Shown here piece by piece: positions 7,670-45,486 of a DNA stretch of 59,100 nucleotides. The notes below the pieces were generated by a model. The model saw only the letters and a program-made list of their open reading frames with translations. It did not search any database and had not been told where the DNA came from. A program made the translations under genes and the position numbers. Source of the stretch: an uncultured Gammaproteobacteria bacterium (GTDB lineage: Bacteria > Patescibacteriota > Microgenomatia > Levybacterales > UBA12049); NCBI GenBank assembly GCA_964553245.1, contig CAZKJM010000003.1:1-59100 (forward strand). The letters run 5' to 3'. Positions within the stretch are counted from its first letter, which is position 1, and every line of letters begins with the position of its first letter.

Positions 7670-8068
7670 ATGAAAACCGCCCAAGCGGAAACGTTGTTTA
7701 CACTAAAACAAGAAAGAAACCCAACGCATCCATTTATACGAACCTTAAAAGCGGATAAAGAACACATGCTTACAATTGTTGATCCTTTTAAATTAGCAGA
7801 GGATAATGACGGATTATTTGAGCAGTTGAATAATTTATCTCTAGATTCAAATACAAAATTACTTGTGTATGAAAAAGAGGAAATGGTTTATTCACCAAAG
7901 ACGCCAAATGACCAGAGAATCTTAATTTCTACCGAAATAGACGGAAAAAAAATATATGGATATATTTTAAAAGGTGAATTTAAAGGCAGAAATATCACGA
8001 GAATAAATCAAGATCAATTGGGAATGGATTCACAAAATGATCCCGACGAAGAGGGTCTTCCGTTTTAA
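7670..8068 (+). CDS. Hypothetical protein
   Basis: 132-aa ORF with its own promoter (ATGTCA-17-TATAAT, 7632-7660). Confidence 0.75.
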   Translation: MKTAQAETLFTLKQERNPTHPFIRTLKADKEHMLTIVDPFKLAEDNDGLFEQLNNLSLDSNTKLLVYEKEEMVYSPKTPNDQRILISTEIDGKKIYGYILKGEFKGRNITRINQDQLGMDSQNDPDEEGLPF

Positions 8069-8529: not shown

Positions 8530-8537
8530 TAAATTTA

Positions 8538-8594
8538 TACGCTATCTCCTATTTGCTATATGCTATTCACTATGTGCCATACGCCATTTCGCCA
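8538..8594. repeat. Degenerate heptamer array (TACGCTA TCTCCTA TTTGCTA TATGCTA TTCACTA TGTGCCA TACGCCA TTTCGCCA)
   Basis: About 8 units, consensus TNTGCYA, directly after the stop of the dCTP deaminase-like gene. Confidence 0.85.
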
Positions 8595-9128
8595 TCATAC
8601 CTGTTTTTCTCTTTTTACTGCCGAAACTCTTCCACCCTGCCATTGCCCACGGTATTTGCTACCAACTCCTTTTATTTCGTTAAAAATAATGTGAACAAAT
8701 CTTGCTCCCATTTCGATTTCTACTGTAACCGGTCCTTCATTTTTAAGACCAAAAGTCAATTCGCCGCTATAGCCCGGCTGAACAGGACCTGTCCTTAAAA
8801 AAAGACCGGAGCGAAAAGTTGTTGTTCTTGGTAAAATTGTTGCGGATAAGCTTATCGGTAAATTAATTTTTTCGATTGTTTTTACTAAGAAAAAATCTCC
8901 GGGTTTTATTTTTACACTTTTATCTTTACCATATTTTTTAACCGATACTATATCTGGAGTTTTTCTGTGTGTTTCACCAAGAAATGCGCTTCCTGAAATC
9001 TTAAAAACTTCTCCTAATCTTAAATCAAAACCAGTTCCTTCCGGATTAGTCAATTCTCTTTCGGATAATCCCTCAACAAGCTTTTTTGTTTTTACAAGTT
9101 TTAATAAAACTTTCGGACTTATAATCAT
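8595..9128 (-). CDS. dCTP deaminase/trimeric dUTPase-family protein (second paralog)
   Basis: GFDLRLG, PRTTTFRSG, VQPGYSG, GARFVHI motifs. Confidence 0.85.
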   Translation of the reverse strand: MIISPKVLLKLVKTKKLVEGLSERELTNPEGTGFDLRLGEVFKISGSAFLGETHRKTPDIVSVKKYGKDKSVKIKPGDFFLVKTIEKINLPISLSATILPRTTTFRSGLFLRTGPVQPGYSGELTFGLKNEGPVTVEIEMGARFVHIIFNEIKGVGSKYRGQWQGGRVSAVKREKQV

Positions 9129-9802
9129 ATAACTTTTTCTACCTTTTTAACGATCTCTTTTGACATCTCTCTGACATCCTTTTCACCATCAAATACGGAC
9201 ATTTCTTTTTTAAACATTTTTATTACAAAAAGATAGCCGTTTCTGATTTTATCAAGCTTTAATACATCTTCGTAAATTTCTTTTTCTTTATCCATTCCCG
9301 AAAGTCTTTTTAAAGCTGTCTTTGAGCTAATATCCAAATAAATAAAAACATCCGGAAGAATGAATTGATAAAACATAGAAAGAATTGATTGACTGATTAA
9401 TAGAAAATTAGTTGTATTTTTATAGTCGGTTGCATCTCTATCGGAGATTCCATAAGCAACAGATGACCAAAAATATCTGTCGGTTATAACTATTTCTCCT
9501 TTTTTTAAATGCTCGATTATTTCTAGCTGCTGAACTTGTCTATCTGCTGAATATAAATATTGAAAAGAAATTAATGGAATTTTGATTTTTCCTCTTAAAA
9601 CCTGGTGAATCAATCTTCCAATCGGACCTTTTCTGGTCGGATTCTTGGTTAAAAAAACTTTCTTTCCTTTCTTCTCCAAGGCTTTTTTTAGTAATTTTAC
9701 TTGTGTTGTTTTTCCTGAACCGTCGATTCCCTCAAAAGCAATAAATTTTCCCTTATATGGATTTCTTTTAAAATCTAGATTTAAACTAATTTTATATCTC
9801 AT
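9125..9802 (-). CDS. tmk: Thymidylate kinase
   Basis: FIAFEGIDGSGKTTQ P-loop, ADR, VITDRY, LPD motifs. Confidence 0.97.
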   Translation of the reverse strand: MRYKISLNLDFKRNPYKGKFIAFEGIDGSGKTTQVKLLKKALEKKGKKVFLTKNPTRKGPIGRLIHQVLRGKIKIPLISFQYLYSADRQVQQLEIIEHLKKGEIVITDRYFWSSVAYGISDRDATDYKNTTNFLLISQSILSMFYQFILPDVFIYLDISSKTALKRLSGMDKEKEIYEDVLKLDKIRNGYLFVIKMFKKEMSVFDGEKDVREMSKEIVKKVEKVI

Positions 9803-9804
9803 AA

Positions 9805-10626
9805 TTATTTATAAACTCCTCTGTATTGATTTGGTAAAAGAGGAGCAATTTTTTGACCCATAATATTATCCATGAGCTCTTGCCTCGAGCTTTTTCTACT
9901 TGCATTATTTCTACCTTTAACTGATTCTCTTAATTCACTTATCGAAAATGGTTTTCCAAAAACAATTTCTGCTCCTGCTCTTACCGGAATCACACTTCTT
10001 AATCCTTTTTCTGTTGGAAGAATTTTTTCTGTACCAGAAATGGCTATCGGCAAAATATAAGTTTCGTCACTTAAATAATGAGCAACCTGCTCTACTCCTT
10101 TTCCAAGCTGACAATCTCTACTTCTTGTTCCTTCTGGAAAAACCATAATTATTTTTCCGTTTTCTAAAGCATAAGAAATTGCATTAAGAGAATTTCTACT
10201 CATTGCCATTGCCTGCTTTCTTTCCTCCGGTGTTGATGGACTAACTGTTGGTGGCCAAACATCTATATGTGTGCAAGAGTTAGAAAGCGTTTTTGTAATG
10301 ATTTTTTTATCCAATCTTATACCTCTTAAAAAAACTAATTTATGTCTTATGTCGGAAAAACCGTGTCTTGATAATGCATATTGAAGAACCGGCGCATCAG
10401 CGTTGCTTAGATGATTTGCCATAAAAAAAACAGGCTTTTTTTCTTCTAGTAAAATTCTTATATCATCCAAATTCTCTAATCCTCTAATTTGCTCTTTACA
10501 AACTAAACCACATTCTATATCTAGTAATCCGGCAATAAAAGAATTTTTTTCTTTAATAGACGGTTTCTTTTGTTCCGTTGTTTCCTGATTAATTCCTTGA
10601 ATCGTCACAATCGCTTCTTTTGTCAT
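9805..10626 (-). CDS. Lysophospholipid acyltransferase (PlsC family)
   Basis: NHLSNAD (HX4D), FPEGTRS, PIAISGT motifs. Confidence 0.9.
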   Translation of the reverse strand: MTKEAIVTIQGINQETTEQKKPSIKEKNSFIAGLLDIECGLVCKEQIRGLENLDDIRILLEEKKPVFFMANHLSNADAPVLQYALSRHGFSDIRHKLVFLRGIRLDKKIITKTLSNSCTHIDVWPPTVSPSTPEERKQAMAMSRNSLNAISYALENGKIIMVFPEGTRSRDCQLGKGVEQVAHYLSDETYILPIAISGTEKILPTEKGLRSVIPVRAGAEIVFGKPFSISELRESVKGRNNASRKSSRQELMDNIMGQKIAPLLPNQYRGVYK

Positions 10627-11198
10627 ATTTTCTCCTCGTTTATCTTTGATTCATAAGGCTGATTTTGATTTTTATATTTTGCAGACTTTTTTTTAATATA
10701 TGGAACTTCTGATTCCGAAGATAATTCTTCGAAGGTCATTGCGCAAATTCTCATTCCTGGATAAAGCGCAATTGGAAGTCTTCCCAAGTTTCCAAGTTCT
10801 AATACTGCTTGACCATCCCAACCCGGATCAAAAATACTGGCTGTTGAATGAACTACAATACCTAATCTTCCAAGAGAAGAACGACCCTCTAATCTACCCA
10901 AAAGAGATGGATCAATAGTAATTCTTTCTTTAGTTATTGCCAAAACAAAATCTCCCGGTTGAATATAAAATGGTTCATTATCTTTAATAATAATTTCTTT
11001 AGTAAAAACTTTATCTTTTATATTTTTTGAGTTTGTATCAATAAGTGAATGCTTGCTATATTCAAAAATTCTAAAAGTATTACCCAAACGAAGATCAATT
11101 GAACAAGAACCAAGTTGTATTTTTAAATCAGGAACCGGAGCTATTTTTATCTTTCCGTTATTTAATGCTTTTTTAATATCTCTATCCGATAGAACCAT
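10623..11198 (-). CDS. dcd: dCTP deaminase
   Basis: MVLSDRDI, SIDLRLG, LEGRSSLGRLG, FDPGWDG, LELGN, PGMRI motifs. Confidence 0.97.
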   Translation of the reverse strand: MVLSDRDIKKALNNGKIKIAPVPDLKIQLGSCSIDLRLGNTFRIFEYSKHSLIDTNSKNIKDKVFTKEIIIKDNEPFYIQPGDFVLAITKERITIDPSLLGRLEGRSSLGRLGIVVHSTASIFDPGWDGQAVLELGNLGRLPIALYPGMRICAMTFEELSSESEVPYIKKKSAKYKNQNQPYESKINEEKI

Positions 11199-11284
11199 AA
11201 AAAAAAGTTTAACACTAAAAAATTTCGAATACAAGAATTAAATTAATCTTGACAAGACGGTAAAAATGTTGCTTAATTAAATTA

Positions 11285-15166: not shown

Positions 15167-16777
<1,611 letters not shown>

Positions 16778-20977: not shown

Positions 20978-21427
20978 ATGACAGCAAGCGCACACGCTTT
21001 AATAGGAACTGTAATTGCGGCAAAAATCGGAAACCCAGTTCTAGGAATTCCTCTTGCAATCGCATCCCACGTAATAGCAGATTCCATACCGCATTGGGAC
21101 ACAGCAACTAATGGTAACGGGAAAGGTTCCGTGCGAATGTTTTACGATACTATAGCCGATGTTTTAATAAGCTTTATTCTTTCCTATTTATTAATTTACT
21201 TTTTGTTTCCAGCTACAAACATAGGCTATGCTTTTCTTTTAGTAATTATGTCTCAAGCCTTGGATTGGCTTACAGTTCCGTTTTATTTTTTTGGGGTTGA
21301 AAAACCCCTTTTTAAATCCGTTTATAAATTTCAAAAAATATTTGACAGAAAACTAGATAAGCCTTGGGGAATTTTAACTCAGGTTATTTTTGTTTCTTTG
21401 GTAATTCTTCTTGGGCTTGTTTTTTAA
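20978..21427 (+). CDS. Membrane protein, metal-dependent hydrolase-like
   Basis: HALIG, SHVIADSIPHWD, QALD motifs; several TM helices. Confidence 0.7.
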   Translation: MTASAHALIGTVIAAKIGNPVLGIPLAIASHVIADSIPHWDTATNGNGKGSVRMFYDTIADVLISFILSYLLIYFLFPATNIGYAFLLVIMSQALDWLTVPFYFFGVEKPLFKSVYKFQKIFDRKLDKPWGILTQVIFVSLVILLGLVF

Positions 21428-23402
21428 TATCCTCCAACTTCCATGCTGCAAAATCACATTTTGGGTAAGTTGAGCAACCATAGAATTTACGACCTTTTCT
21501 TGTTCTTTTGAGGATAATTTTTCCTCCGCATTTTGGACAATTAAATTTAGTTTCCTCAATAAACGGTTTTGTAAATTTACAGTTAGGAAAAGTTTTACAA
21601 GATAAGAATTTTCCGAATCGACCAAGTCTTATTACCAAATTTGAACCACATTCCGGACATTTTTCCGAAGTTTCTTCCACCTTAATCTTTACCCTTTCTG
21701 TATCCTTTGCTTCTTCAAGTGTCTTTTCAAAAGGTTTGTAAAAAGCATTCATAAAAGGAACCCAGTCTTTATTTCCATTTGCAACTTCATCTAATCCATC
21801 TTCCATTTCTGCCGTAAAAGGAATGTCGTCAATCGTAGAAAAATTCTTAACCAAAAAGTCATTTACAGCAACCCCAACAGAAGTTGGAAGAAATCTTCCC
21901 TCAACTCTTTCTATATATTTTCTTGTTTCTATTGTTGAAACAATAGTTGCATAAGTAGATGGCCTTCCTATTCCTTTTTCTTCAAGAGTTGCAATCAATG
22001 ACGCGTCGTTATATCTTGGCGGAGCTTGTGTTTCGTGTTCTAATTCATTTATGCTTTTAATATTCAGGACTTGATTTGCTTTAAAATCCGGCAAAACTTT
22101 ATCGCTTAGAGCCTGCGGTGTCAACTTTAAAAATCCATCAAATAGCAAAATTGAACCATTGGTTTTTAATTTATATTTTTTATTATCGGAGTCTGCAAAT
22201 ACAGTCGTTGACTCAATTATTGCATCATTCATTTGAGAAGCTACTGCTCTTTTCCAGATAAGTTCATAAACCCTGGCATAATCTCTTCCTAAAGTTTCAC
22301 CAATTTCTTCTGCGTTACGGTTAATATGCGTTGGTCTAATTGCCTCATGGGCTTCTTGAGCTAGTTTTTGCTTTGTCGTGTAAAATTTGGGCTTTTCCGG
22401 TAAGTATTTTTTACCATAAATTTTATCTATATAATTCCTAATTGACGTAAGAGCAGAAGTCGCCATTATTACAGAATCTGTTCTGTGATATGTAATAAAG
22501 CCTTCCTCATAAAGTTTTTGCGCAAGAGTCATTGTGCGCCTTCCGGCAAAACCATAACGCCTGGATGCTTCTTGCTGAAGAGTCGATGTTGTAAATGGAG
22601 GAAGCGGTGATCTTTTTGTCTCTTTTTTTAGAACATCTAAAATTTTGTACTTTTCTTGGGACATTTTGGAGATAAAATCCTTTGCCTGATCCAAGCCTCC
22701 TATTAGAGTTTTTTTAAAGCTGTAATTTCCATCGTAAAGGTTAATTACGGTCTGAAACTCAATTTTCTTCCCATCAAGTTCGAATAATTCAAACTCCACG
22801 TCTTTCCCGTCTTCTAGTGTAAAAACGCTTATTGTAAAATATTTTTCTTTTTTAAACTTTTCTATCTCTTTTTCCCGCTCGACAATAAGTCTTAGCGCAA
22901 CTGATTGAACTCTTCCAGCAGATAAACCCCGTCTTACTTTTTGCCATAAAATCGGAGAAATTTTATAGCCTACTAACCTATCCAGAACGCGTCTTGCGGT
23001 TTGCGCCTCAACTAAATGTTCGTCTATTTCCCTGGGGTTTTTAATTGCCTCTTCAATTGCTTCTTTGGTAATTTCATGAAAAACTATTCTTTTGAAATGC
23101 AGTTTTGAACCAAGCAATTCCTTAACATGCGAAGCGATTGCCTCTCCTTCCCTATCCGGATCAGTTGCTAAGATTATTTGATCTACGCTTTTAACAGCTG
23201 ATTTTAACTCACTAATTGTTTTTTTCTTATCTTTTAATTGCTCGTACTGAGGTTGAAAATTGTTCTCGACATCAACGCCTAATGTACTTTTAGGAAGATC
23301 CATAATGTGCCCCATTGAGGCTTTTATTTCGTATCCATCTCCCAAAAATCTTCCGATTGTTTTTGCTTTTGTAGGACTTTCTACTATTACAAGATTTTTC
23401 AT
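21384..23402 (-). CDS. topA: DNA topoisomerase I
   Basis: LVIVESPTKA, ATDPDREGEAI, SAGRVQS, ITYHRTDS, GIGRPSTY, C-terminal Zn ribbons. Confidence 0.99.
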   Translation of the reverse strand: MKNLVIVESPTKAKTIGRFLGDGYEIKASMGHIMDLPKSTLGVDVENNFQPQYEQLKDKKKTISELKSAVKSVDQIILATDPDREGEAIASHVKELLGSKLHFKRIVFHEITKEAIEEAIKNPREIDEHLVEAQTARRVLDRLVGYKISPILWQKVRRGLSAGRVQSVALRLIVEREKEIEKFKKEKYFTISVFTLEDGKDVEFELFELDGKKIEFQTVINLYDGNYSFKKTLIGGLDQAKDFISKMSQEKYKILDVLKKETKRSPLPPFTTSTLQQEASRRYGFAGRRTMTLAQKLYEEGFITYHRTDSVIMATSALTSIRNYIDKIYGKKYLPEKPKFYTTKQKLAQEAHEAIRPTHINRNAEEIGETLGRDYARVYELIWKRAVASQMNDAIIESTTVFADSDNKKYKLKTNGSILLFDGFLKLTPQALSDKVLPDFKANQVLNIKSINELEHETQAPPRYNDASLIATLEEKGIGRPSTYATIVSTIETRKYIERVEGRFLPTSVGVAVNDFLVKNFSTIDDIPFTAEMEDGLDEVANGNKDWVPFMNAFYKPFEKTLEEAKDTERVKIKVEETSEKCPECGSNLVIRLGRFGKFLSCKTFPNCKFTKPFIEETKFNCPKCGGKIILKRTRKGRKFYGCSTYPKCDFAAWKLEDIKKQAQEELPKKQK

Positions 23403-24478
23403 CTTAGATCATAAATACCGTTTTCATTGTTAACATAACCTTTCATCTCCAGTAAAGAAAGAGTGCTTCCGATAACTGACGGTTCAAGTTTTAATCTTCT
23501 AACAATCTCATCAAAATGTAAAGACTCATTTTCTAATATTTTGATAATTTCCTGTTCTTCCCTTGTATTCCCTTTTATCTTTAATTTTTTATTTGCATTT
23601 TTAATGTTTGATTTTTGATACTTAAATTCTTTTAAGATGTCTTCCGCAGATGTTACCAATTTTGCTCCTTTTTGAATCAATTTATAAGGACCTTTTGAAA
23701 ATCTTGAGTTAATCGGACCTGGTACTGCAAAAACCTTGCGGTTAAATTTAAAAGCATAATCTGCGGTTATTAATGATCCACTGTCCTCCTCCCCTTCGGT
23801 TACCAAAACTCCCAAAGAAAGACCGGCAATAATTCTATTTCTTGCAGGAAATAATCCTTTGGTTGGTGTTTGACCTAAGGGAACTTCCGAAACAATTGCC
23901 CCGGAATTTTTAACTATACTATTATATATATTAATATTTGTAGAAGGGTGACACACATCAACGCCCGATCCTAAAACTGCAATAGTCTTACCCTCTTGTT
24001 CAATTGCAGTAGTAGCAGCAACTGCATCAACGCCCAATGCTAACCCCGATACTATCGTAAAACAGTTTTGAACCAGTCCTTGTGTAATAATTTTTGTTAC
24101 TTCCCTGCCATATTGCGTTGTTTTTCTGGCTCCGACAACAGCAATAATTCTGTCATTAATCGGAAGCTTCCCTTTTCCATATAAAACAATCGGAGGGTTG
24201 CTAATTTCTTTTAAAAGCTTTGGATAGTTCTTGTCATTTAAGCACAAAAACCAAACTTTTTTCTTTACTAACTTTCTTTCGTAATCTGTTAATGAAAAGT
24301 TATTTCTGAACTTATCAAATTTAAAGGCTAATTTTTTTCCGATTATTTTTGAAAGATCATCTATAGACGAATACCAAATATTTTTTGCTGACCCAAATTC
24401 GATTAATAAAGTTTTGAATTTAATCGGACCAATTCCGGAAAATGCAGAAAACCCCAAATAGTATTTTTTATCGTCCAC
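23399..24478 (-). CDS. dprA: DNA-processing protein DprA
   Basis: YPKLLKEI..PP, AVVGAR, IVSGLALGVD, FPARNRIIAGLS, GSLITA; GTG start. Confidence 0.98.
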   Translation of the reverse strand: MDDKKYYLGFSAFSGIGPIKFKTLLIEFGSAKNIWYSSIDDLSKIIGKKLAFKFDKFRNNFSLTDYERKLVKKKVWFLCLNDKNYPKLLKEISNPPIVLYGKGKLPINDRIIAVVGARKTTQYGREVTKIITQGLVQNCFTIVSGLALGVDAVAATTAIEQEGKTIAVLGSGVDVCHPSTNINIYNSIVKNSGAIVSEVPLGQTPTKGLFPARNRIIAGLSLGVLVTEGEEDSGSLITADYAFKFNRKVFAVPGPINSRFSKGPYKLIQKGAKLVTSAEDILKEFKYQKSNIKNANKKLKIKGNTREEQEIIKILENESLHFDEIVRRLKLEPSVIGSTLSLLEMKGYVNNENGIYDLR

Positions 24479-24525: not shown

Positions 24526-24996
24526 TTAAACTGGATTTTCTATAACGTGTAAATTTTCTCTTTTTTCATAGATGTAATCCAGTAATTCTCTATACTTTTC
24601 CAAATCAGAAACAAAAGGATCTCTTCTTTGTTCAGAATGAGGTAAAGAAGAACATATCTCCGCAACTCCATCTGTAATTTTTAAAAATCTAAGCGTTTCT
24701 TCTAAATACACTGTAGATTTTGATCCTTCTTTGTTACTTTTTGTTAAGACAACAACAACATCGGGGTTAATTCCATTAATTTTACTTCCTTCCGGCACTG
24801 GTATGCCCAATTTTAATACCATCTCTTCTTTTTGTTGATCAAAAAAATGATCGAAGATTTTTGCAATGGTTTCTGTAAGTTTTGCCGGCTGATTACCCTC
24901 TAAGTTTAATGTCCCATCGTATTTTAAATGACGATTGTCTATAACTTTACTTACTGCCGTTGGTAACAAACCTCTTCGACTTTCTATGTTTCCCAT
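24526..24996 (-). CDS. Hypothetical protein
   Basis: 156-aa ORF with a promoter-like TTGAAA..TAAAAT upstream. Confidence 0.7.
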   Translation of the reverse strand: MGNIESRRGLLPTAVSKVIDNRHLKYDGTLNLEGNQPAKLTETIAKIFDHFFDQQKEEMVLKLGIPVPEGSKINGINPDVVVVLTKSNKEGSKSTVYLEETLRFLKITDGVAEICSSLPHSEQRRDPFVSDLEKYRELLDYIYEKRENLHVIENPV

Positions 24997-25046
24997 TTAT
25001 GTTATTTTAACAAACTAAATCTGTTTTTCAAGGGTTAAATTAAAAA

Positions 25047-25151
25047 TTATTTTTCAGAAAAATAAGCCTCGAGGATTTTTTTAGTAATTGACGCTGCAAT
25101 ATTTGATCCCTCGCCACTTTCTTCTGCCAAAACCGTTACTACAATTTGCGG
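25047..25151 (-). pseudogene. Displaced alternative 3' end of mrdA (PQIVVTVLAEESGEGSNIAASITKKILEAYFSEK*)
   Basis: The first 34 nt (25151-25118) are identical to mrdA 26593-26560; the remaining 23 codons are 14/23 identical to the current PBP2 C-terminus. Confidence 0.9.
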
Positions 25152-25170
25152 GCAAAAATCAAAAAAAATT

Positions 25171-26469
25171 CTATTTTTTAGGAGCAAAAGAACTTAATTT
25201 TCTTACTGCTTCTTCTGAACTTTTTTCAATAATTTGATCTAACTTTCTGCCTTCTTGAGCCCCGGGCTTTGATAAACTAAGCAATATTCTTCTGTACCAT
25301 TTTTCATGTAAATTAGGTATTAAAGAAAATCCGCGAGCCCATTTTCCTTTTTCTTCTTCTGACAAAAGACTGAATTTATTTTTAATAGCCTCTATTGCCA
25401 TATCAACGTCCGGTCCAGACTCCATTTGCCTACAAAAACTAAAAAAATCCTCCATATATTTTACTAACAAAACCGGATCGGATATCGGGTCTTTTCTTAG
25501 TATCGCATCTACAAATTCCAATTGCTCTACTACTGCCGGAAGAATTACTTCATTTGTAAAATATTGAGTATCATATTGAGAATAAATATTTTTTGTCAAA
25601 GCAGAATTTCTAAACATTCTCATATGCTCCAAAACGTTCCTAGCTTGATCTTTTCTGTCTGTATTTTTTATCTGGTCATCTGTTCTTTCGAAAGGAGTAA
25701 AATGATGAATAAAATCTTCTTTTTCGTCTTCTTTTACCTGATGAAATCCTTCTTGTGAATAATCTTCTGTCGGAGTTGCTTTTGTCAGCATATGCCTTGC
25801 CATTCCCTGCATTCCTTGAATATCAACTCTATCTGTCCATCTTGTTAACCAAACTCCCCACCTGTTTTCATCTATGATCTCATCCTCATAAGGTTTTTTA
25901 GTAACAGTTTCTCCGTCCTTTACAACCTCTATGTCTCTTGTGTAGTGAGTGTGAGCTGCAATTGCATAGCAGACTAGTTTTCTTAGGTTAGGCGGAATGA
26001 GGTCTTTTGAAATTTTGTCAAATAAAGCTGCTCCGACTTCTGCATGCCCAGAAAATCTTTTTGATTCTTGATATCTATCTACTACAGAATTTCCAATATC
26101 GTGAAAGACCGCACCAAAAAGACCAACTGTTTTTTCCACATAATCGATTTCTTTTAGTGAGGGATCGTTTTTTAAAACAATAACAATATTTATTAAATCT
26201 CTATAGACATGCCCTTGACTATGACCTGCTTTCGCTTCTTTTATGTAAGGCTTAAATCTTTCCAGTAGCTTAAGTGTAACATCCGGATCTAAGCCTTCGA
26301 TTTCTTCAGCTGCTACTTGTTTTATTTCTTTCCATTTCGACAAAGGTTCAACTTCTTCTCTTAATTTTTTAGTCCAATTAAAAGTCTCCTTGTCATTTTC
26401 TGAAAAAAATTTTTTATAGTCCTCTATTTTCCCACTTTCTGGTAATTCTGACCGTATAAACTCAGTCAT
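25171..26469 (-). CDS. HD-domain protein
   Basis: GHSQGH ... FHDIG ... GHAEVG ... AAHTH ... TDR pattern. Confidence 0.85.
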   Translation of the reverse strand: MTEFIRSELPESGKIEDYKKFFSENDKETFNWTKKLREEVEPLSKWKEIKQVAAEEIEGLDPDVTLKLLERFKPYIKEAKAGHSQGHVYRDLINIVIVLKNDPSLKEIDYVEKTVGLFGAVFHDIGNSVVDRYQESKRFSGHAEVGAALFDKISKDLIPPNLRKLVCYAIAAHTHYTRDIEVVKDGETVTKKPYEDEIIDENRWGVWLTRWTDRVDIQGMQGMARHMLTKATPTEDYSQEGFHQVKEDEKEDFIHHFTPFERTDDQIKNTDRKDQARNVLEHMRMFRNSALTKNIYSQYDTQYFTNEVILPAVVEQLEFVDAILRKDPISDPVLLVKYMEDFFSFCRQMESGPDVDMAIEAIKNKFSLLSEEEKGKWARGFSLIPNLHEKWYRRILLSLSKPGAQEGRKLDQIIEKSSEEAVRKLSSFAPKK

Positions 26470-26476
26470 CTTCTAA

Positions 26477-28267
26477 TTATAATTTATTTTTTATATTCTT
26501 AAAATATTCTTCCAATATTTTTTTGGAGATTGGACCAGCTACATTAGAACCTTCCCCGGTTTCTTCTGCCAAAACCGTTACTACAATTTGCGGATCATAC
26601 GCTGGAGCAAAAAGGGTAATCCATGAATGCGGTAGTGTTTGCTCGCCTCCGTGCTGGGCGGTTCCAGTCTTACAAGCGATTGAAATTTCTCTCATGTCTG
26701 CTGAACCAGAAGAAATTGGTACTTCCATAAAGTTTTTTCCATCTACTTTTAAGTCTTTATTTTTTACTTTAAAATTAAATAAAGGCCATGCAACTCCCCC
26801 CTCGCTACAACTTTCTATCATTCCCTGCTTTATTAAACCAATTGTTTTATCGCTTAAAAATCTTTTATTATTTTCCGTTATTTTTTTATTTTTTAGTAAA
26901 TGCGGTTGATAAAATTTTCCATCATTAGCAATTGCTTCTGTTAAGGAATTAACCTGAAGAGGCGTTGTTAATAAATACCCTTGTCCTATTCCGTAATGGT
27001 ATGTATCCCCTAAGTACCATTGTTCCCCAATTGTTTTTTCCTTCCATTCGGGATTTGGAACAGTTCCACCCACCTCTCCCGGCAAATCTATCCCTAAAGC
27101 TTCTCCTAGACCGAATTTTTTTGCCCATTTAGAAATATTATTAACTCCGATTTTTTCTGCTAATTTATAAAAGAAAATATCATTTGATCTTTTTATTCCT
27201 TTTACAATATCTACTTCTCCTTCTTTTCCTCCATAACTTGTGTAATACCAGTTGGCAAAAGAAAAATCGCCTATTTTTAAGACTCCCGTATCCTCTATGG
27301 TATAATTTTCGTCTATTATATTCTCCTCTAAACCGGCAGCTGCAACAACAAGCTTAAAAGTTGAGCCGGGAGGATACATTCCCGAAATTGTCCTATTTAA
27401 CATTGTTTGATATTTCGTATCTGTAAGAATTTCCTTAAGACTTGCTGAATCAGATGATTGATTATATTTAGAACCCATTGTAAATAAATTTGGATCAAAA
27501 CTTGGCTTAGAAACTAAAGCTAAAATCTCCCCTTTTGTGTTTGAGATGACAACAGCACCTCTTTTTATATCTTTCATAGCATTGTTAGTAGCTTCCTGAA
27601 GCTTTATATCCAAAGTAAGCTTTATGTTTTGTCCCGAAACCGGATCTGTCTGCCCTAGCTTTCTTACCTCTTTTCCAAAACTATCCACTTCAAATAGTTG
27701 TTTTCCGTTTGTCCCTCTTAGTCTTTCTTCATACTCGTTTTCTATACCCATTTTTCCAATTAAATCACCGGATTTGTAATCCACAAATTTTGAATTTTTT
27801 AATTCTTCTTCCGAAATTTGACCAATATAGCCTAAAACGTGAGAAGCGCTCTCTTTATATGGATATTCACGCAAGACATCCATTTCGAATCCCTGTTCGC
27901 CTTTTGCCATTAAATTTACAACCTCGTCTTTTTCTAAAATTTTTGTTTTTCCGTTTACGGTTTTTCTAAACCCCGGAACATTAAACACCAGTGGAGTGTT
28001 GTTTCTGTCTAAAATAATTCCTCTTGGAGCATGGATAATTACCGTTTTAATCCTATTGCTATCGGCTAAATATCTATAATAGGAACCTTTTATCACCTGG
28101 AGATAAAAAAGTTTTAAAAATATTGCTGCAATTATAACCACCAAACAAACTAAAAGAAAATACTCTCTTGTAAAAGCACTTTTAAAACCACTTTCTCCTG
28201 ATCGTTTTTTTGATTTATCCAAATAAATAAATTCCGGAAACGCTGCACCGATTTTATTTTTATACAT
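26477..28267 (-). CDS. mrdA: Penicillin-binding protein 2
   Basis: APRGIILDRN, PPGSTFK (SxxK), SND (SxD/N), KTGTAQ (KTG). Confidence 0.97.
   Translation of the reverse strand: MYKNKIGAAFPEFIYLDKSKKRSGESGFKSAFTREYFLLVCLVVIIAAIFLKLFYLQVIKGSYYRYLADSNRIKTVIIHAPRGIILDRNNTPLVFNVPGFRKTVNGKTKILEKDEVVNLMAKGEQGFEMDVLREYPYKESASHVLGYIGQISEEELKNSKFVDYKSGDLIGKMGIENEYEERLRGTNGKQLFEVDSFGKEVRKLGQTDPVSGQNIKLTLDIKLQEATNNAMKDIKRGAVVISNTKGEILALVSKPSFDPNLFTMGSKYNQSSDSASLKEILTDTKYQTMLNRTISGMYPPGSTFKLVVAAAGLEENIIDENYTIEDTGVLKIGDFSFANWYYTSYGGKEGEVDIVKGIKRSNDIFFYKLAEKIGVNNISKWAKKFGLGEALGIDLPGEVGGTVPNPEWKEKTIGEQWYLGDTYHYGIGQGYLLTTPLQVNSLTEAIANDGKFYQPHLLKNKKITENNKRFLSDKTIGLIKQGMIESCSEGGVAWPLFNFKVKNKDLKVDGKNFMEVPISSGSADMREISIACKTGTAQHGGEQTLPHSWITLFAPAYDPQIVVTVLAEETGEGSNVAGPISKKILEEYFKNIKNKL
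26560..26593. repeat. 34-bp exact direct repeat (partner at 25118-25151)
   Basis: TTTCTTCTGCCAAAACCGTTACTACAATTTGCGG present twice, 1442 bp apart. Confidence 0.97.
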
Positions 28268-28275: not shown

Positions 28276-28701
28276 TTATTCGAATTTATATTTTTTTGTT
28301 TTTATTTCAGAGATCAAAAGCAGCTTAAATATCAAAAGAGTTAAAAAGCTACAAAAAATGCTTTGAATAAATGCATTTTGAATCCCAAAAAAAAGCAAGT
28401 ATATTAAGCTTCCTAAAAATGAACTTATTAAAATAAACGCACTTGTGGAAGTTTCAAATTTATTTTCGTAAAGACTGATAATAATTAAAAAAAATAAAAA
28501 AATTACACTTGTTAATCCGAGATCTCTAACTAACATTAAGTCTAAAATTAAACCAACAATAAGGGCAATCCAAAATAAAATATTTTTTCTTAAAAAAACC
28601 ATTAATATTAAAAAAGAGGATAATACTAGAGGCAATGTTGTAATTGTACCTTCAGCAATAATAGACAAAAATAATATCAACCAAATAATCCATTGCTTCA
28701 T
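28276..28701 (-). CDS. mreD: Rod shape-determining protein MreD
   Basis: Polytopic membrane protein with a GLILDL motif, between mreC and mrdA. Confidence 0.8.
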   Translation of the reverse strand: MKQWIIWLILFLSIIAEGTITTLPLVLSSFLILMVFLRKNILFWIALIVGLILDLMLVRDLGLTSVIFLFFLIIISLYENKFETSTSAFILISSFLGSLIYLLFFGIQNAFIQSIFCSFLTLLIFKLLLISEIKTKKYKFE

Positions 28702-29489
28702 CGGCTTCCTTTATAAACAAAAACTATATTTAGTTTCGTAAAATCAAGCATGCTTTTTACTTCCGCATTCTGAAAAAGCGCGCTGGGATTTTTATCTATG
28801 GAAATTATTTTTCCAACAATTAGATCAGGTGGAAAACCTACTCCGTCGATGTTTAAATCCCCTTTTGTAAAAACGATATCTGAATTTTTTAAAGGTTCCG
28901 ATAAAAGAACATTGCCTAAAATCATTTCTCCTCCACCAAGTCCTTTTACGAGTCCTATTGCGTTTTTAGATCCTGTTTTTACAGCAAGTGTCATATTGGG
29001 ATTCGTAATTAAAGATACTATTGATTTTGACGAATCAATTCTTGTTATTTTTCCAACTAAATTATCTTTGTATAAAACAGCATTGCCGACTTTTAAACCG
29101 TCGTCTAATCCCTTGTCTAGTATTAAATTTTCTGGATACGAAACATTTGGAATAAAACTCGGAAACCCAATAACTTTTGCTGGAAGTAGATTTTGTGCCT
29201 CAGGCTTTTGAACCGAAAATTGATCTCTTAAGGCATAATTATCTTTTTCCAATTTTTCTAAATCTGTTTTTATTTTTAAAAAGTCTAAGTTTTCTTCAGT
29301 TAATTTTAAGTTTTCCTGATTGTTAAAAAGTAAACCAAAAGACTGATAAAAACTCTTTTGTATTGGGAATAAAATTCTTGAAAAAAATGACGTTATACCA
29401 TTTGTAATACCAAAGTTTGATAAAAGTATGATTAAAAATGTTAAAAAAATTACGATTAAAAATACAGTTATTTTGCTTTTCTTAAGCAT
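28698..29489 (-). CDS. mreC: Rod shape-determining protein MreC
   Basis: TM, coiled coil, ILDKG..DG, LVGKI, FPPDLIVG, FQNAEV; ATG 29489 is the likelier start. Confidence 0.93.
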   Translation of the reverse strand: MLKKSKITVFLIVIFLTFLIILLSNFGITNGITSFFSRILFPIQKSFYQSFGLLFNNQENLKLTEENLDFLKIKTDLEKLEKDNYALRDQFSVQKPEAQNLLPAKVIGFPSFIPNVSYPENLILDKGLDDGLKVGNAVLYKDNLVGKITRIDSSKSIVSLITNPNMTLAVKTGSKNAIGLVKGLGGGEMILGNVLLSEPLKNSDIVFTKGDLNIDGVGFPPDLIVGKIISIDKNPSALFQNAEVKSMLDFTKLNIVFVYKGSR

Positions 29490-29616
29490 AATCACTATTT
29501 TAACCCTTTTTGAACTATTGAACAAGCGAAGACAACATTAATTATCAATTAACAATAAATAACTAATTAATCAAATCTCAAACGCCTGAAAATTTAAAAT
29601 TAAAGCAGAAAACAAA

Positions 29617-30759
29617 CTATTTTAGTCCGCCAATTACCTTAACTCTTTGAAGAAGTGTGTTATCCTCCAAGACTTTTCCGGTTCCTCTGGCAACACTGGT
29701 TAACGGATCTTCTGATACTATTACCGGTATGTGTGTTCTTTCGACTATTAAATGATCAAATCCGGAAAGTAAGGATCCTCCACCGGTTAACAATATTCCG
29801 TGTTCTAAAATATCGCTTTCCAGCTCCGGTGGAGCTTCTTCTAAAACATCGGATATTCCATCTATAACCTGTGAAAGAACAGGAGACAATGCTTCTCTTA
29901 CTTCTGTTTCTGTAACTCTTAAGCTTTTAGGAAGCCCTGTTTCTATGTCCCTACCTCTTACGATCGCCATCTTCTCTCCTCTTTCCTTTATTTCGTCAAT
30001 TAATGACTCTTCTTTTTTATCTATGTCTTCGTTTTTTGACTTTTGATCAACCGAGCGGCGAACAATCTTTGATTTAGTAGCAAACGCTGTTCCAATTTTT
30101 ATTTTTAATTCTTCTGCTGTTTTTTCTCCTAATAAAAGCCCGTGTTTTAATCTAATATAATGGATTATTGCCTTATCAAAATCTTCTCCTGCAACTTTTA
30201 AGGACTTACTAACAACAATTCCACCCAAGGAAATTATTGCAACTTCCGTTGTTCCTCCTCCTACATCAACAACCATTACACCTGTTGGAGCAAAAATTGA
30301 AACACCTTCCCCAATTGCTGCTGCCATTGGCTCTTCAATTAAAAAAGCTTCCCTTGCTCCAGCGTTTAAGGCTGCTTCCCAAACAGCTCTTCTTTCTACT
30401 TCGGTAACTGACGAGGGAATTCCAATAACAACTTTAGGCCTTGACCAGGCAACGGGCAAAACATTTCCAACTTCATGTACCTGTTGAATATACTTGGAAA
30501 TCATTGCCGCAGTAGCGTCAAAATCTGCGATTACTCCTCCGTGTAACGGCTTTATGGTTACTATTGGGTCGGGAGTTTTTCCAAGCATTCTTTTTGCCTC
30601 GGTTCCTATGGCAATTACTTTTTTTGTTTTCTTGTGCATGGCAACAACCGATGGCTCTCTAATAACAATGCCTTTTCCTTTTACCCAAACAAGAGTATTT
30701 GCAGTACCTAAATCAATACCAATGTCTTGAGAAAAAAAACTGAAGAATTTTTTAAACAT
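29617..30759 (-). CDS. mreB: Rod shape-determining protein MreB, with a ~30-aa charged insertion
   Basis: DIGIDLGTANT, EPSVVA, IEEPMAAAIG, VVDVGGGTTE, GGGSLL motifs. Confidence 0.99.
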   Translation of the reverse strand: MFKKFFSFFSQDIGIDLGTANTLVWVKGKGIVIREPSVVAMHKKTKKVIAIGTEAKRMLGKTPDPIVTIKPLHGGVIADFDATAAMISKYIQQVHEVGNVLPVAWSRPKVVIGIPSSVTEVERRAVWEAALNAGAREAFLIEEPMAAAIGEGVSIFAPTGVMVVDVGGGTTEVAIISLGGIVVSKSLKVAGEDFDKAIIHYIRLKHGLLLGEKTAEELKIKIGTAFATKSKIVRRSVDQKSKNEDIDKKEESLIDEIKERGEKMAIVRGRDIETGLPKSLRVTETEVREALSPVLSQVIDGISDVLEEAPPELESDILEHGILLTGGGSLLSGFDHLIVERTHIPVIVSEDPLTSVARGTGKVLEDNTLLQRVKVIGGLK

Positions 30760-36140: not shown

Positions 36141-36212
36141 GCCGACATAGTTTAATGGTAAAACAAGTCATTGGTAATGACTAGAGCATGGGTCCGATTC
36201 CCATTGTCGGCT
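36141..36212 (+). tRNA. tRNA-Thr(GGT)
   Basis: Anticodon loop TTGGTAA, atypical T-loop TCCGATT. Confidence 0.95.
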
Positions 36213-36214
36213 CA

Positions 36215-36641
36215 AGATAGTTATGGGTTATTAGTTCGGAGTTATGAGACGATGGATAGTTTATTTAATTTTGAAAAGCTTGAAGTTTATAAAAGAACCG
36301 TAAATTTTGTTAATCAGGTTTATAAAATTACAAAATTATGGTCAAGAGATTTAAGTTTTTCCCTAACCGACCAATTTAGAAGAGCTTCGTTATCAATTGC
36401 TCTAAATATTGCTGAAGGAGCAAGTAGAACAAAACCCGAGTTTAAAAGATTTATAACTATCTCAAGAGGATCTGCTCATGAATGCATACCGATTCTTGAG
36501 ATTGCAGAAAAACAAGGTATAATTAATAAGAAAAGAAAGGAGGAATTAAGAGAAGAGATTATTATTATTTCTAAGATGTTAAGCAAGTTAAAAAATTCTA
36601 TTAGAATCTCATAATTAAAATCTCATAACTCATTACTATCT
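36215..36641 (+). mobile_element. Four-helix-bundle cassette bounded by inverted five-unit heptamer arrays and AGATAG/CTATCT termini
   Basis: Left array GATAGTT ATGGGTT ATTAGTT CGGAGTT ATGAGAC is the inverted counterpart of right array ATCTCAT AATTAAA ATCTCAT AACTCAT TACTATC; mobility is inferred. Confidence 0.65.
36252..36614 (+). CDS. Four helix bundle protein (23S rRNA IVS protein / bAvd-like, TIGR02436-type)
   Basis: FEKLEVYK, LTDQFRRASLSIALNIAEG, ISRGSAHE motifs; ATG 36252. Confidence 0.95.
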   Translation: MDSLFNFEKLEVYKRTVNFVNQVYKITKLWSRDLSFSLTDQFRRASLSIALNIAEGASRTKPEFKRFITISRGSAHECIPILEIAEKQGIINKKRKEELREEIIIISKMLSKLKNSIRIS

Positions 36642-41713: not shown

Positions 41714-42136
41714 ATGGCAAAAAAGATAAAAACATTAATTAAATTAAACATTCCGGCAGGAGCAGCAACTCCTGCGCCACCTGTTGGACCTGCTTTGGGT
41801 CAACATGGACTTCCTATTATGGAATTTGTTAAAGCATTTAATGACAAAACAGCTGATCAAAAAGGCACAATCGTACCAGCAGTAATTACTGTTTATGAAG
41901 ATAGAACTTTTTCTTTTATAACCAAAAAACCGCCGATTGCCGAAATGATTAAAAAGGCGCTTGGAAAAGAAAAGGGTTCACAAAAACCGGGAAAAGAAAA
42001 AGCCGGAACTTTAACACAAACTCAAGCAGAAGAAATAGCGGCGGCAAAACTGGAAGATCTTAACACAACCGACATAAAACAAGGTGCAAAGATAGTTGCA
42101 GGAGTTGCAAGATCAATGGGAGTGGAAGTTAAATAA
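41714..42136 (+). CDS. rplK: 50S ribosomal protein L11
   Basis: [38 protein letters not shown]. Confidence 0.99.
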
Positions 42137-42137
42137 T

Positions 42138-42956
42138 ATGGGAAAAATCAGAGTAAAAACATTAGGAGTTGAAGAGCTCGAAGAAAAAGAAAAAAAAGAA
42201 GCTAAAAAAAGAGCGGAAGCTAAAAAAGCTGCTTTTAAAGCCGTTGAAAATAAAGAGGAAATTGAAGAAAAAAAAGAAGCCAACGATAAACCAACCGAAA
42301 AAAAACTGAACGAAGAAAAATCATCCTCTAGCATAAAAAAGAAAACAAAATTTGCAAAAAAAGATCAAAAAACTCCAAGATCTGAAAAATATCAGGGTTT
42401 AAAAGACTCTTTTGAAAAGAATAAAACTCATTCTCTTTCCGAAGGACTGGATATCCTAGAAAAACTACAAAGAAAAAGTTTTGACGAAACAGTTGAGCTC
42501 CATATAAACACTATTGCTACCGGAATTTCCGGAAACGTTACACTTCCTCATGGAACAGGTAAAAAAACAAAAGTTGTTATTGCAAGCGATCAAATAATTG
42601 CCGAAATAGAAAAAGGCGTAATAAGCTTTGATATTTTAGTTGCAGAACCGGCAATGATGCCAAAATTGGCAAAAGTAGCTAAAATTTTAGGACCAAGAGG
42701 ATTGATGCCTAATCCTAAAAACGGAACAATTACACCAAAGCCGGAAGACTTAGTTAAAAAATACGAAGGTGGTCAAATTTCCTTTAGAACCGAAGCTAAA
42801 GCACCACTTCTTCATATATCTGTAGGAAAAGTTTCTTTTGGAAAAACCAAACTAACCGACAATATAAAATCATTAATTTCCGCTATTAAAAAAGAGAATA
42901 TTCAGAAAATTACTCTTAAATCCACAATGTCCCCCGGAATTAAGATTCAGATATAA
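42138..42956 (+). CDS. rplA: 50S ribosomal protein L1 with a charged N-terminal extension and a shortened core
   Basis: FDETVELH, LPHGTGK, ILGPRGLMPNPK, STMSPG; ATG 42138. Confidence 0.97.
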   Translation: MGKIRVKTLGVEELEEKEKKEAKKRAEAKKAAFKAVENKEEIEEKKEANDKPTEKKLNEEKSSSSIKKKTKFAKKDQKTPRSEKYQGLKDSFEKNKTHSLSEGLDILEKLQRKSFDETVELHINTIATGISGNVTLPHGTGKKTKVVIASDQIIAEIEKGVISFDILVAEPAMMPKLAKVAKILGPRGLMPNPKNGTITPKPEDLVKKYEGGQISFRTEAKAPLLHISVGKVSFGKTKLTDNIKSLISAIKKENIQKITLKSTMSPGIKIQI

Positions 42957-43008
42957 ACTTATAGTATTTGACAGCGTAAATAATTTTTGCTAAAATTAAC
43001 TCCTTAAT

Positions 43009-43944
43009 ATGGCAAAACAAGAACTCGGAATTTCAGATCCGGGAAAATGCAGACAATTAATTTCTCCATCCGAGGCTTTAAGAAGAAATCCTAATTTCTT
43101 TGAAGGCAGACCGACTGATGTATCTTGGACTTTAACGGTTCGCCACTTAGATGGAAGAATCGAAAAACTTCCTGCCGGAACAGATTGGGAAGCTGTAAGT
43201 AGATTCGGAGTAATAAGATCTGCTGTTGTCACAAATCCGGACGGTTCCCCTGCTTTTGACAGACCCCGTTACGACGAAGCCCCAAACGTTAACATCGTAG
43301 CATGGGGAAAAGATAAGAAAGGAAAAGTAAAAGTTGCATTAATTAGTCAATCAAGACCACACGCCGATAATGAATTTGAGCCTGAAAACACTGAGCCAAT
43401 GATATTTGAGCAAATTCCAATGGGTTTCGTAGATAAAGTTATTGGAAAAGATCAGATGGAAAGATTTGAACACGCACATGAAGCAGCTACTAGAGAGACA
43501 CAAGAAGAAACAGGTGCAATTGCAGTTTTAGATATTGCATGCCCTGAATATTCAAAACACTATCCTAATCCAACGTTTATCGGGACTAACTCTGATTTGG
43601 TTTTTGTAGAAGTTGATTTAACACAAATTGATAAAATGAAAATGGATAGAACAGAACCAATATTTAATGCTGACTACGTTCCTGTATCTGAAGTATTGGC
43701 TGATATCAAAAAAGGTAAAACAGATAGAGGTTACGCTAGAATGTGCACAGCAAATTCTGCCATTTTAATATTTTTAGCTGGACTTGAACAATTTCATCGC
43801 GCGGAAAGAAATCATACTGTTGTTTCCAGAAAAATTGAAACTTACAAAAAAGTAAAAACTAATTTGTCAGATGAGGAAAGAAGAAAATTATTTAAATTGA
43901 AATCAGAAATTAGAGAGCTTGAAAAAAAAGCTACTAAGAAATAA
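43009..43944 (+). CDS. Nudix-family hydrolase-like protein
   Basis: E-x7-RETQEETG Nudix box with an insertion after the PMG; own promoter 42968-42996. Confidence 0.75.
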   Translation: MAKQELGISDPGKCRQLISPSEALRRNPNFFEGRPTDVSWTLTVRHLDGRIEKLPAGTDWEAVSRFGVIRSAVVTNPDGSPAFDRPRYDEAPNVNIVAWGKDKKGKVKVALISQSRPHADNEFEPENTEPMIFEQIPMGFVDKVIGKDQMERFEHAHEAATRETQEETGAIAVLDIACPEYSKHYPNPTFIGTNSDLVFVEVDLTQIDKMKMDRTEPIFNADYVPVSEVLADIKKGKTDRGYARMCTANSAILIFLAGLEQFHRAERNHTVVSRKIETYKKVKTNLSDEERRKLFKLKSEIRELEKKATKK

Positions 43945-43997
43945 TTCCTTACCCCAGCTTTACAAAAATTCAACTATAAGATATAATCTGCGTTTAT

Positions 43998-44594
43998 ATG
44001 AAAGAAAAATTAATTCCAGATGCAACAGAAAAAGAACCAGTAAAAACTCCTAAAGAGATCTTTGAGGGACTCGTCGGAAAACTAACAAAACACGGGGAAA
44101 CAAGGGAATCTTACGGAGCATCTTACAAGCTTAGCGATAATCTAACCTTAACTCTTTTGCATAATGCATCATTTAGAAACGGAAAAACCGGTCATACAAC
44201 CTCTGATCAATATATGGCTTTTTTGGTCGAAAAAGCTGTTATTAACGGTTATACGATACGTGTTAGAGAAAGTTATTTTTCGACCAAAAAAGGTGTTCAT
44301 TACGGAATAAGTATTGCCGGCTTTACGGATCCTGATGGAAAACATACAATAATCAGGGATAAAACCGGAAGACCTGACCATATATATCTTCAGGGCAAGG
44401 ACTCAATTCCTCCGGAAGCAAAACTCGCATTGCTTGAAAAATGCGTTAAAGAAAAACAATTATCAAAAGACGATAAAATTAACGGATTAGTAAAAATTAT
44501 GGAAGAAATAGATATAAATACAAGAATCGATCCTAAAAAATATCATTTTGACTGGCACGGACAAAAACATATTTTAGGCGGAGATCCTAAATAA
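43998..44594 (+). CDS. Hypothetical protein
   Basis: 198-aa ORF; promoter TTTACA-17-TATAAT 43959-43987. Confidence 0.75.
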   Translation: MKEKLIPDATEKEPVKTPKEIFEGLVGKLTKHGETRESYGASYKLSDNLTLTLLHNASFRNGKTGHTTSDQYMAFLVEKAVINGYTIRVRESYFSTKKGVHYGISIAGFTDPDGKHTIIRDKTGRPDHIYLQGKDSIPPEAKLALLEKCVKEKQLSKDDKINGLVKIMEEIDINTRIDPKKYHFDWHGQKHILGGDPK

Positions 44595-44702
44595 CCCCCT
44601 ATTTTCTATAAGTCTTTTTTTCTTTTTAATTTTTAGTTTACTATCGGTTTTTGTATTGACTTTTTTATTTATTAAATATAGGATATATTTTTATTAAAAC
44701 AT

Positions 44703-45443: not shown

Positions 45444-45486
45444 ATTGTCTTGACAAGTAAAAAAGCCTTTCATAAAATAACCTCCT

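Follow-up and report, generated by a model that had tools for sequence, protein, structure and literature searches.

For rhs genes, Jackson et al. (2009) proposed a two-step C-terminal displacement model, based on homologous recombination through a circular intermediate, in which displaced fragments retain a core identical to that of the live gene but have different tips (PMC2935791). Related cases are the orphan C-terminal (CT)/immunity modules of contact-dependent growth inhibition (CDI) systems and the displacement of type VI secretion effector-immunity modules, for which homology-facilitated illegitimate recombination (HFIR) has been proposed (PMC5361080). Element-borne replacement gene ends are known from e14 and phage 21 in icd (icd/icdC; PMC13626634) and from ICESt3-type elements in fda (PMC7563491), all of which are integrase-mediated. 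Cis-mobilizable elements (CIMEs) are remnants left by integrative and conjugative elements (ICEs) or integrative and mobilizable elements (IMEs) that are flanked by attachment (att) sites and lack recombination genes, and fda, rpsI, and rpmG carry them at their 3′ ends (PMC7563491). In Escherichia coli, single crossovers of re-circularised, partly degraded plasmids, with duplication of the homologous segment, made up 56 of 60 selected candidate HFIR events (PMC3240628). Here, we describe a locus in a 59-kb stretch of DNA (59,100 nucleotides of contig CAZKJM010000003.1, hereafter the window) in which mrdA, the gene for the essential cell-wall enzyme PBP2, has gained a foreign 3′ end together with an HD-domain gene, whereas its native end lies displaced downstream. 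According to a PBP2 search, the organism belongs to Candidatus Levybacteria (Microgenomates).

The genes of the locus all lie on the minus strand, in the order mreB, mreC, mreD, mrdA, HD ORF, orphan mrdA tail, ORF156, dprA, and topA. The last gene of the mre cluster, mrdA (26477-28267), encodes a PBP2 of 596 aa (Pfam PBP_dimer 7.8e-31, Transpeptidase 6.5e-59). A repeat search returned a single 93-nt direct repeat (25059-25151 and 26501-26593; 77% identity; spacing 1442 nt), which in gene orientation starts with 34 identical nucleotides (the last 34 on the plus strand). This 34-mer occurs exactly twice in the window with 3 mismatches allowed, two matches were seen in 0 of 100 shuffles, and the chance expectation of exact 34-mer repeats is about 2e-10; self-blastn of the whole window revealed no other repeat of this kind. 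Both copies are in frame and encode PQIVVTVLAEE. Copy 1 (26560-26593, these codons plus 1 nt) lies within the live mrdA and continues into the current PBP2 end, TGEGSNVAGPISKKILEEYFKNIKNKL and stop (tail A, 26477-26559). Copy 2 (25118-25151) continues into SGEGSNIAASITKKILEAYFSEK and a stop at 25047-25049 (tail B, 25047-25117). The two tails share 14 of 23 residues and, past the 34-mer, 38 of 59 nucleotides.

Between the copies lies the HD ORF of 432 aa (25171-26469, minus strand; Pfam HD 7.2e-6), which starts 7 nt past the mrdA stop and ends 19 nt before the second 34-mer, the latter interval being occupied by the spacer AATTTTTTTTGATTTTTGC (25152-25170). It is the only ORF of the insert, in which no recombinase was found by Pfam, NCBIfam, or PADLOC. 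In the window, the only part of this genome searchable for recombinases, no recombinase or transposase family matched any ORF of at least 100 aa (Pfam, together with the precomputed Pfam hits of a second contig, L001, described below). An earlier note on this DNA had reported the exact repeat with its spacing of 1442, the two different PBP2 ends that follow it, the lone 432-aa HD gene, and the lack of an integrase or transposase, and all four observations were reproduced, the last at the ORF length just given.

The same note had predicted an empty allele in which mrdA ends in ...AYFSEK directly before an ORF156 homologue, and such an allele is present in a sister lineage found through that homologue in four Logan samples (L042-L045). 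Sister and window are 82-86% identical in DNA over approximately 16 kb and 86-87% identical in PBP2. The sister has mreB-mreC-mreD-mrdA(592 aa)-ORF158-dprA-topA and lacks the HD gene; its PBP2 ends in ...PEIVITVLAEESGEGSNIAAPIAKKILDAYFSEK (...AYFSEK) and a stop codon, followed by the same intergenic region and the ORF156 homologue. In the blastn comparison of L042 with the window, the alignment is lost past tail A and picks up again exactly at 25151, at copy 2. Deleting the 1442 nt from the window makes the alignment to L042 seamless, with 80-89% identity per 100 nt across the junction. Upstream, the identity of mrdA stays uniform, at about 77-93% per 100 nt, as far as the repeat, and the same per-100-nt comparison to L042 reveals no foreign or divergent tract upstream of the 34-mer. 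Relative to the sister, 0 recipient nucleotides are missing and 34 nt are duplicated, and identity is 84-86% in the upstream flank and 82% in the downstream flank. The native mrdA-ORF156 intergenic region (24997-25046) is conserved in L042 and unaltered by the insertion, and ORF156 (24526-24996, minus strand), which has no assigned family, forms the native right flank and directly follows mrdA in the empty-site sister.

Over the 59 nt past the 34-mer, tail B matches the live tail of the sister at 50 positions, versus 42 for tail A. Tail A is nearly equally distant from all sampled lineages (39-44 of 59 nt), and its ending is akin to the 'EEYFKNK' tails of other Levybacteria PBP2s. The closer match of tail B to the sister and the unchanged intergenic region indicate that tail B is native and that tail A came with the HD gene; this demonstrates that tail B is the native mrdA end and tail A a foreign one. 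Thus, the body of mrdA down to 26560 is native and its final 83 nt are imported, as the earlier note had supposed in proposing that the insertion swaps the PBP2 C-terminus; the homology of the downstream copy to mrdA ends of relatives, which it had listed for checking, is likewise borne out. Of 118 Levybacteria PBP2s, all have Pro and 117 have Ala at two positions where tail B has Ser and Thr, respectively; tail A keeps the invariant Pro. In addition, tail B is out of frame with the HD gene, and the one start available in its frame, a TTG, overlaps the HD end. Judged by these features, tail B is a decaying, now non-coding remnant. A read-through fusion of the HD protein with the orphan tail was considered and is ruled out, as the frames differ.

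After the sister, the next relatives are four outgroups with PBP2 identities of 67-69%, whose arrangements are mrdA-DUF3467-DUF433-...-topA (P0043), mrdA-topA (P0046 and P0048), and mrdA-217 aa-dprA-topA (P0045). In none of the four is an HD gene present between mrdA and topA. Since it is absent from the sister and from all four outgroups, one gain is more parsimonious than several losses. The comparison thus demonstrates that about 1.4 kb, comprising the foreign tail, 7 nt, the HD gene, and 19 nt, was gained in the lineage of the window, with displacement of the native tail.

Two different junctions bound the imported piece. Copy 1 is an in-register, homologous junction, whereas 25152/25151 is a non-homologous one: the 30 nt upstream of the orphan 34-mer match their mrdA counterpart at 8 of 30 positions, with at most 'CC' at the join. 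A 7-nt 'TTTTTGC' was considered as junction microhomology and rejected, because it is offset by 13 nt and the residual matches there are at chance level. The 34-nt block ranks in approximately the top 12% of mrdA 34-nt stretches in cross-lineage conservation and is the last conserved block ahead of the variable tail; conservation and position together make it a natural anchor.

We favour, as a probable though by no means secure explanation, a one-off additive integration, of the insertion-duplication or single-crossover type, of a chromosomal mrdA'-HD fragment from another Levybacteria lineage. The donor would have contributed some 28 terminal codons of its own mrdA, starting no later than the point of divergence past the 34-nt block, followed by the 7-nt spacer, the HD gene, and 19 nt. 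In-register joining to the recipient would have taken place inside the block PQIVVTVLAEE or at its end, and the other end of the fragment would have joined without homology just upstream of the same block, leaving one block copy at the head of the foreign tail and HD gene and the other at the head of the displaced native tail. The topology is that expected when the chromosome undergoes a single crossover with a circle consisting of the 34-mer, tail A, the HD gene, and 19 nt; a donor strand bridging two sister copies would give it too, as would a template switch during replication that leaves the recipient and returns to it. In consequence, PBP2 now ends in a foreign tail that is longer by 4 residues. 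It is in this sense that we infer the nature of the donor and the enzymology of the event, with host homologous recombination or repair, rather than an element-encoded recombinase, as the driver. Host recombination had already been suggested as a driver by the earlier note, and it is the most economical one.

Additional observations bear on the donor. The GC content shows no step at the insert, which is compatible with a donor of similar composition. Because the HD gene adjoins mrdA without repeats in other lineages (see below), the imported piece looks like an ordinary chromosomal mrdA-HD junction of a relative. No PBP2 with tail A was found in searches of 5.8 billion proteins, and a GTDB genome scan with PBP2 yielded only relatives of at most 40% identity, of no use for synteny.

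Several points weigh against this explanation. The 34-nt exact match exceeds any exact run between the window mrdA and nine non-sister lineages over the whole gene (16-27 nt), which suggests that a pre-existing identity of 34 nt with a donor as diverged as tail A would be unusual. The donor may have happened to match there (a selection effect, if recombination needed perfect homology), both copies may derive from the recipient (by template switch or sister bridging), or the copies may have been homogenised later. A length of 34 nt is also near the lower limit for RecA-type exchange. Moreover, exact identity with one sharp boundary is also the appearance of an att core, and the recombinase search covered just 59 kb of the genome. 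Finally, the donor is unsampled: no sampled lineage combines tail A with a close HD gene, the best HD homologue being 50% identical, and the examined lineages with A-like tails (L048 and L049) have no HD gene after mrdA.

Among the described systems, the locus resembles rhs C-terminal displacement in that a new tip and the following gene were gained, the old tip was shunted downstream with an identical core, and no recombinase gene is present. The structure is that of an intact gene with a new 3′ tip and its old tip downstream under an identical core (34/34 nt), and the polarity also agrees, as the displaced tip is ancestral (50/59 to the sister) and an empty site exists. Recurrence was not observed, with a single repeat in the window and no orphan at ~20 mrdA loci. 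Unlike in rhs, where polymorphic toxin genes are hit and the tips are unrelated toxin domains, the target is the essential housekeeping gene mrdA and the tips are alleles homologous to each other (14/23 aa); the cargo is an HD hydrolase rather than an immunity gene, and there is a single event with no orphan string and no sign of selection for tip diversity.

With single-crossover insertion-duplication and HFIR, the locus shares one homologous junction and one without homology (8/30 nt on that side), the duplication of a short homologous segment, and the sufficiency of host functions. It differs from classic HFIR, where recipient DNA is deleted, in that recipient DNA is duplicated and none was lost, and from laboratory insertion-duplication cases, where homology spans at least 100 nt (PMC3240628), in having only 34 identical nucleotides. 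What is new is the context, an essential housekeeping gene of a bacterium of the candidate phyla radiation (CPR) with homologous rather than unrelated tips. The locus provides a clean polarised example, with a filled site, an empty sister site, and outgroups, of gene addition between diverged lineages in a CPR genome with a few dozen shared nucleotides and no element-encoded recombinase. The same event silently altered the C-terminus of an essential cell-wall enzyme, and C-terminal displacement, described for polymorphic toxin genes, can thus reach housekeeping genes. No new machinery is implied; the value lies in a documented footprint and in a caution for annotation, as the locus contains an orphan gene tail and a chimeric PBP2 end.

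The alternative that survives best, although we consider it unlikely, is an att-flanked cassette lacking its own recombinase, either CIME-like or a stripped remnant of a larger element specific for the mrdA 3′ end. A tyrosine or serine recombinase located elsewhere or since lost would have integrated a circle whose attP comprised the 34-nt core and a replacement mrdA tail. The anatomy is indeed like that of attL and attR, with an exact 34-nt core, one sharp boundary, and a diverged in-frame replacement end, and e14 is likewise flanked by icd and a displaced icdC fragment (PMC13626634). As at e14/icd and ICESt3/fda, the core of the direct repeat is exact, a pseudogene fragment downstream is what remains of the native end, and the live gene end would be element-derived, with synonymous and conservative differences. 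Unlike the insert described here, e14, phage 21, and ICESt3 are many kb long, use their own integrase at an att site, and excise; the insert consists of one gene, no recombinase was found inside it, and no excised form or second occurrence is known. In structure, the resemblance to CIMEs extends to flanking repeats at a gene 3′ end, cargo only, no integrase or other recombination or transfer gene, and an insert size of 1.4 kb that falls inside the 1.2-13 kb range of cargo-bearing CIMEs (PMC7563491). CIMEs, in contrast, are defined by descent from or co-occurrence with ICEs or IMEs of the same att site, and no cognate element was found at related mrdA loci, within limited sampling.

This alternative is retained at its low level of probability because a maintained att core would explain a 34-nt identity that goes beyond the runs seen between diverged mrdA genes. 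Against it, no recombinase family was matched in the insert or elsewhere in the window, and neither an integrase-bearing element downstream of mrdA nor an orphan PBP2 tail (tblastn with four tail variants) was present at the ~20 related Levybacteria mrdA loci fetched. No flanking repeats were detected at 46 other testable HD loci by blastn and tblastx of upstream versus downstream flanks, and only the window gave a 34-nt blastn hit with a strong in-register tblastx hit (E 1e-13). Both the 34-mer and the HD family are absent from viral contigs (IMG/VR), and no HD relatives occur in phage or plasmid records. The association of the cargo family with mrdA elsewhere without repeats would be a coincidence if the cargo were mobile and is expected of a chromosomal fragment. 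Furthermore, no dyad symmetry is common to both 34-mer copies; one 6-nt inverted repeat crosses the border between 34-mer and tail A in one copy and is absent from the other. The earlier note had inferred a dedicated type of recombinase-less cassette, which the results from the 46 HD loci, the ~20 mrdA loci, and the viral, phage, and plasmid collections speak against. Its hint that the nearness of dprA might be meaningful also loses its force, given that the empty-site sister and several relatives likewise have dprA-topA after mrdA.

Two kinds of candidates were set aside in these comparisons. A site of the Xer/dif type, as used by integrative mobile elements exploiting Xer (IMEX), or another dyad-symmetric site was rejected, since inverted-repeat arms are not present in both copies. 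Minor flank hits at other HD loci (13-14-nt blastn hits at L079 and L088; weak tblastx hits at L069 and L084) look like chance.

It is improbable, in our estimate, that the polarity is the reverse, that is, that the duplicated structure is ancestral and the sister lost tail A and the HD gene by deletion between the repeats. Recombination between direct repeats would give exactly the empty allele of the sister, and the orphan tail would have had time for its changes at invariant positions. However, the HD gene is absent from the four nearest outgroups, the two 34-mers of the window have 0 differences whereas the sister differs from them at 3 of 34 positions, and the sister tail keeps the invariant Pro and Ala lost by the orphan, as if it had always been the live end. 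Such a reversal would alter the timing of the event and not the mechanism that created the duplication.

A bolder extension of the cassette idea, to which we give little credence, holds that the PQIVVTVLAEE block is a true attachment site in Levybacteria and other CPR bacteria for small recombinase-less cassettes with their own mrdA end, and that these are mobilised in trans, either by a recombinase of the host or of an element, or with the help of the HD protein. If so, the mrdA-adjacent HD genes of other lineages would be older insertions whose orphan tails have been lost. This extension was judged on 59 kb of the genome and the ~20 related loci.

An import in the opposite direction is very unlikely. 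In that case, the ancestral order would have been mrdA(tail A)-HD-dprA, and a sister-like fragment (34-mer, tail B, ORF156, dprA, and so forth) would have been added after the HD gene by HFIR anchored in dprA or topA. Such an event needs just a linear donor with one homologous end, and mrdA-HD-dprA is a known order in other lineages. However, both flanks are about equally near the sister (84-86% versus 82%), identity shows no step in dprA or topA at which a tract could have ended, and the nearest outgroups are without HD. The drop in similarity of the live mrdA to the sister exactly at the end of the 34-mer (42/59) would also be left unexplained.

The exact HD protein is encoded on two more public contigs. 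L001, a MEGAHIT contig named k141_... (ENA ERZ27257500), shares 18.6 kb with the window at 100% identity and spans both copies. L002, a Logan unitig of 1468 nt (SRR8476420), begins with the last 30 nt of copy 1 and finishes with the first 30 nt of copy 2, these end points being those expected of a k=31 graph at a 34-nt repeat, and it holds the join of the HD end into the 34-mer. The k of 141 is taken from the name of the contig, both data sets may share the sample of the window, and in a k=31 unitig a circle and a tandem arrangement look alike. The idea that an assembler chimerically joined two strains at the 34-nt repeat draws on the metagenomic nature of the data, on the repeat being a branching node at k=31, and on L002 ending in both copies, and we regard it as very unlikely, because both copies lie inside one k141-named contig, the junction from HD end to 34-mer lies inside L002, and the orphan tail has its own derived substitutions, which fits in-place decay; misassembly, the other check that the earlier note had named, is thus unlikely.

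The HD protein shows weak, sub-threshold similarity to HDIG and Cas3-HD models (NCBIfam, PADLOC). Across 34 HD homologues, H83, H87, D91, H123-D124, H142, E144, H173, and D213 are invariant, a pattern that we take to suggest a two-metal site. Its AlphaFold2 model (pLDDT 91.6, pTM 0.92) best matches the folds of YpgQ and YedJ, which are small nucleotide-hydrolysing HD proteins, followed by SAMHD1 and phosphodiesterases, all with E values of about 0.2 or higher and none at or below 0.001; YedJ is also the sole PDB profile-sequence match (E 0.006). We read the protein as a predicted metal-dependent phosphohydrolase of the HD superfamily. There is no recombinase or homing nuclease signal among its family or structural matches. 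A role as a nuclease or defence gene was considered and set aside, as the Cas3-HD matches are below the PADLOC and NCBIfam cut-offs and no structural match is significant. A free-standing homing endonuclease gene was likewise rejected, given the HD phosphohydrolase family and the presence of a 34-nt duplication and an orphan tail. The HD gene, which starts 7 nt past the mrdA stop, is probably co-transcribed with mrdA by read-through from the mre-mrdA operon.

Homologues of the HD protein are at most 50% identical in the search of 5.8 billion proteins. In three Levybacteria lineages (L007-10, L091, and L092), the HD gene lies straight after mrdA on the same strand with a gap of 16-22 nt, in the orders mrdA-HD-dprA-topA (L007-10), mrdA-HD-61 aa-dprA (L091), and mrdA-HD-topA (L092). 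In a fourth lineage (L011-12), it is one gene away from mrdA, with an opposite-strand exo/endo/phosphatase gene between them. The earlier note had proposed looking for HD genes beside mrdA in other Microgenomates; they exist, and no orphan tail or flanking repeat accompanies the HD-mrdA loci of these four lineages. Remoter homologues occur in unrelated contexts at 41 loci of JGI metagenomes and in L003-6, with two of them downstream of topA. These two, on the JGI contigs L055 and L056, are 42-43% identical and lie approximately 0.7-2.5 kb downstream of topA; the HD family keeps to the same neighbourhood there, at different positions.

Identities of the HD protein and PBP2 are incongruent among lineages, with 77% for PBP2 and 56% for HD between L091 and L092, and 66% and 65%, respectively, between L007 and L092. 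This suggests that HD alleles have been exchanged at this place more than once, normally without a footprint, or that there is hidden paralogy. Almost every lineage examined has its own set of genes between mrdA and topA, and dprA may be present or absent. The interval contains nothing in L049 and L093, only the HD gene in L092, HD and dprA in L007 and L091, ORF158 and dprA in L042, DUF3467, DUF433, and 134-aa genes in L046, a 375-aa reverse-strand gene and dprA in L048, and the exo/endo/phosphatase gene, HD, and two reverse-strand genes in L011. This variable content and the incongruence of HD and PBP2 together mark the mrdA-topA interval as a recombination hot spot for gene exchange in Levybacteria.

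The remaining genes of the locus, again on the minus strand, are mreB (29617-30759), mreC (28698-29525), and mreD (28276-28701), which form the cluster mreB-mreC-mreD-mrdA, and the native flank genes dprA (23399-24478; Pfam DNA_processg_A 1.6e-73), which is outside the insertion, and topA (21384-23402), which follows it; the order of the last two is kept in the sister and in relatives. ORF156 has no Pfam, NCBIfam, or PADLOC family, and besides its own copy, the search of 5.8 billion proteins contained 1 homologue (81% identity), which is restricted to the sister. The mrdA-ORF156 intergenic region contains a promoter-like site, TTGAAA-16-TAAAAT, at 25031-25004 (a consensus match only), and Rfam gave no RNA gene match in the region.

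Several other features of the window may be of interest. Within 42096-47292, the ribosomal protein genes rplA (L1) and rplJ (L10), which are usually adjacent, are separated by four genes: those of a NUDIX protein (43009-43944), a 198-aa ORF, an acyltransferase (44703-45443), and a 174-aa ORF; self-blastn showed no DNA repeat there. A 16S rRNA match at 15169-16777 measures 1609 nt against a model of 1533 positions, probably with an insertion, and has no adjacent 23S gene. An ORF for a protein of the 23S_rRNA_IVP family (36171-36614) overlaps the end of a tRNA call (36141-36212). A thymidylate/folate cluster at 4165-11234 includes SHMT, DHFR, thymidylate synthase, dTMP kinase, and two dCTP-deaminase-like genes (8595-9128 and 10623-11234), with a thymidylate synthase of 336 aa against a model of 266 positions. 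At 51442-58885, three large reverse-strand ORFs follow one another, of 1140 aa (no family), 745 aa (Peptidase_M23), and 597 aa (no family), and they may form a cell-surface or cell-wall-lytic module.

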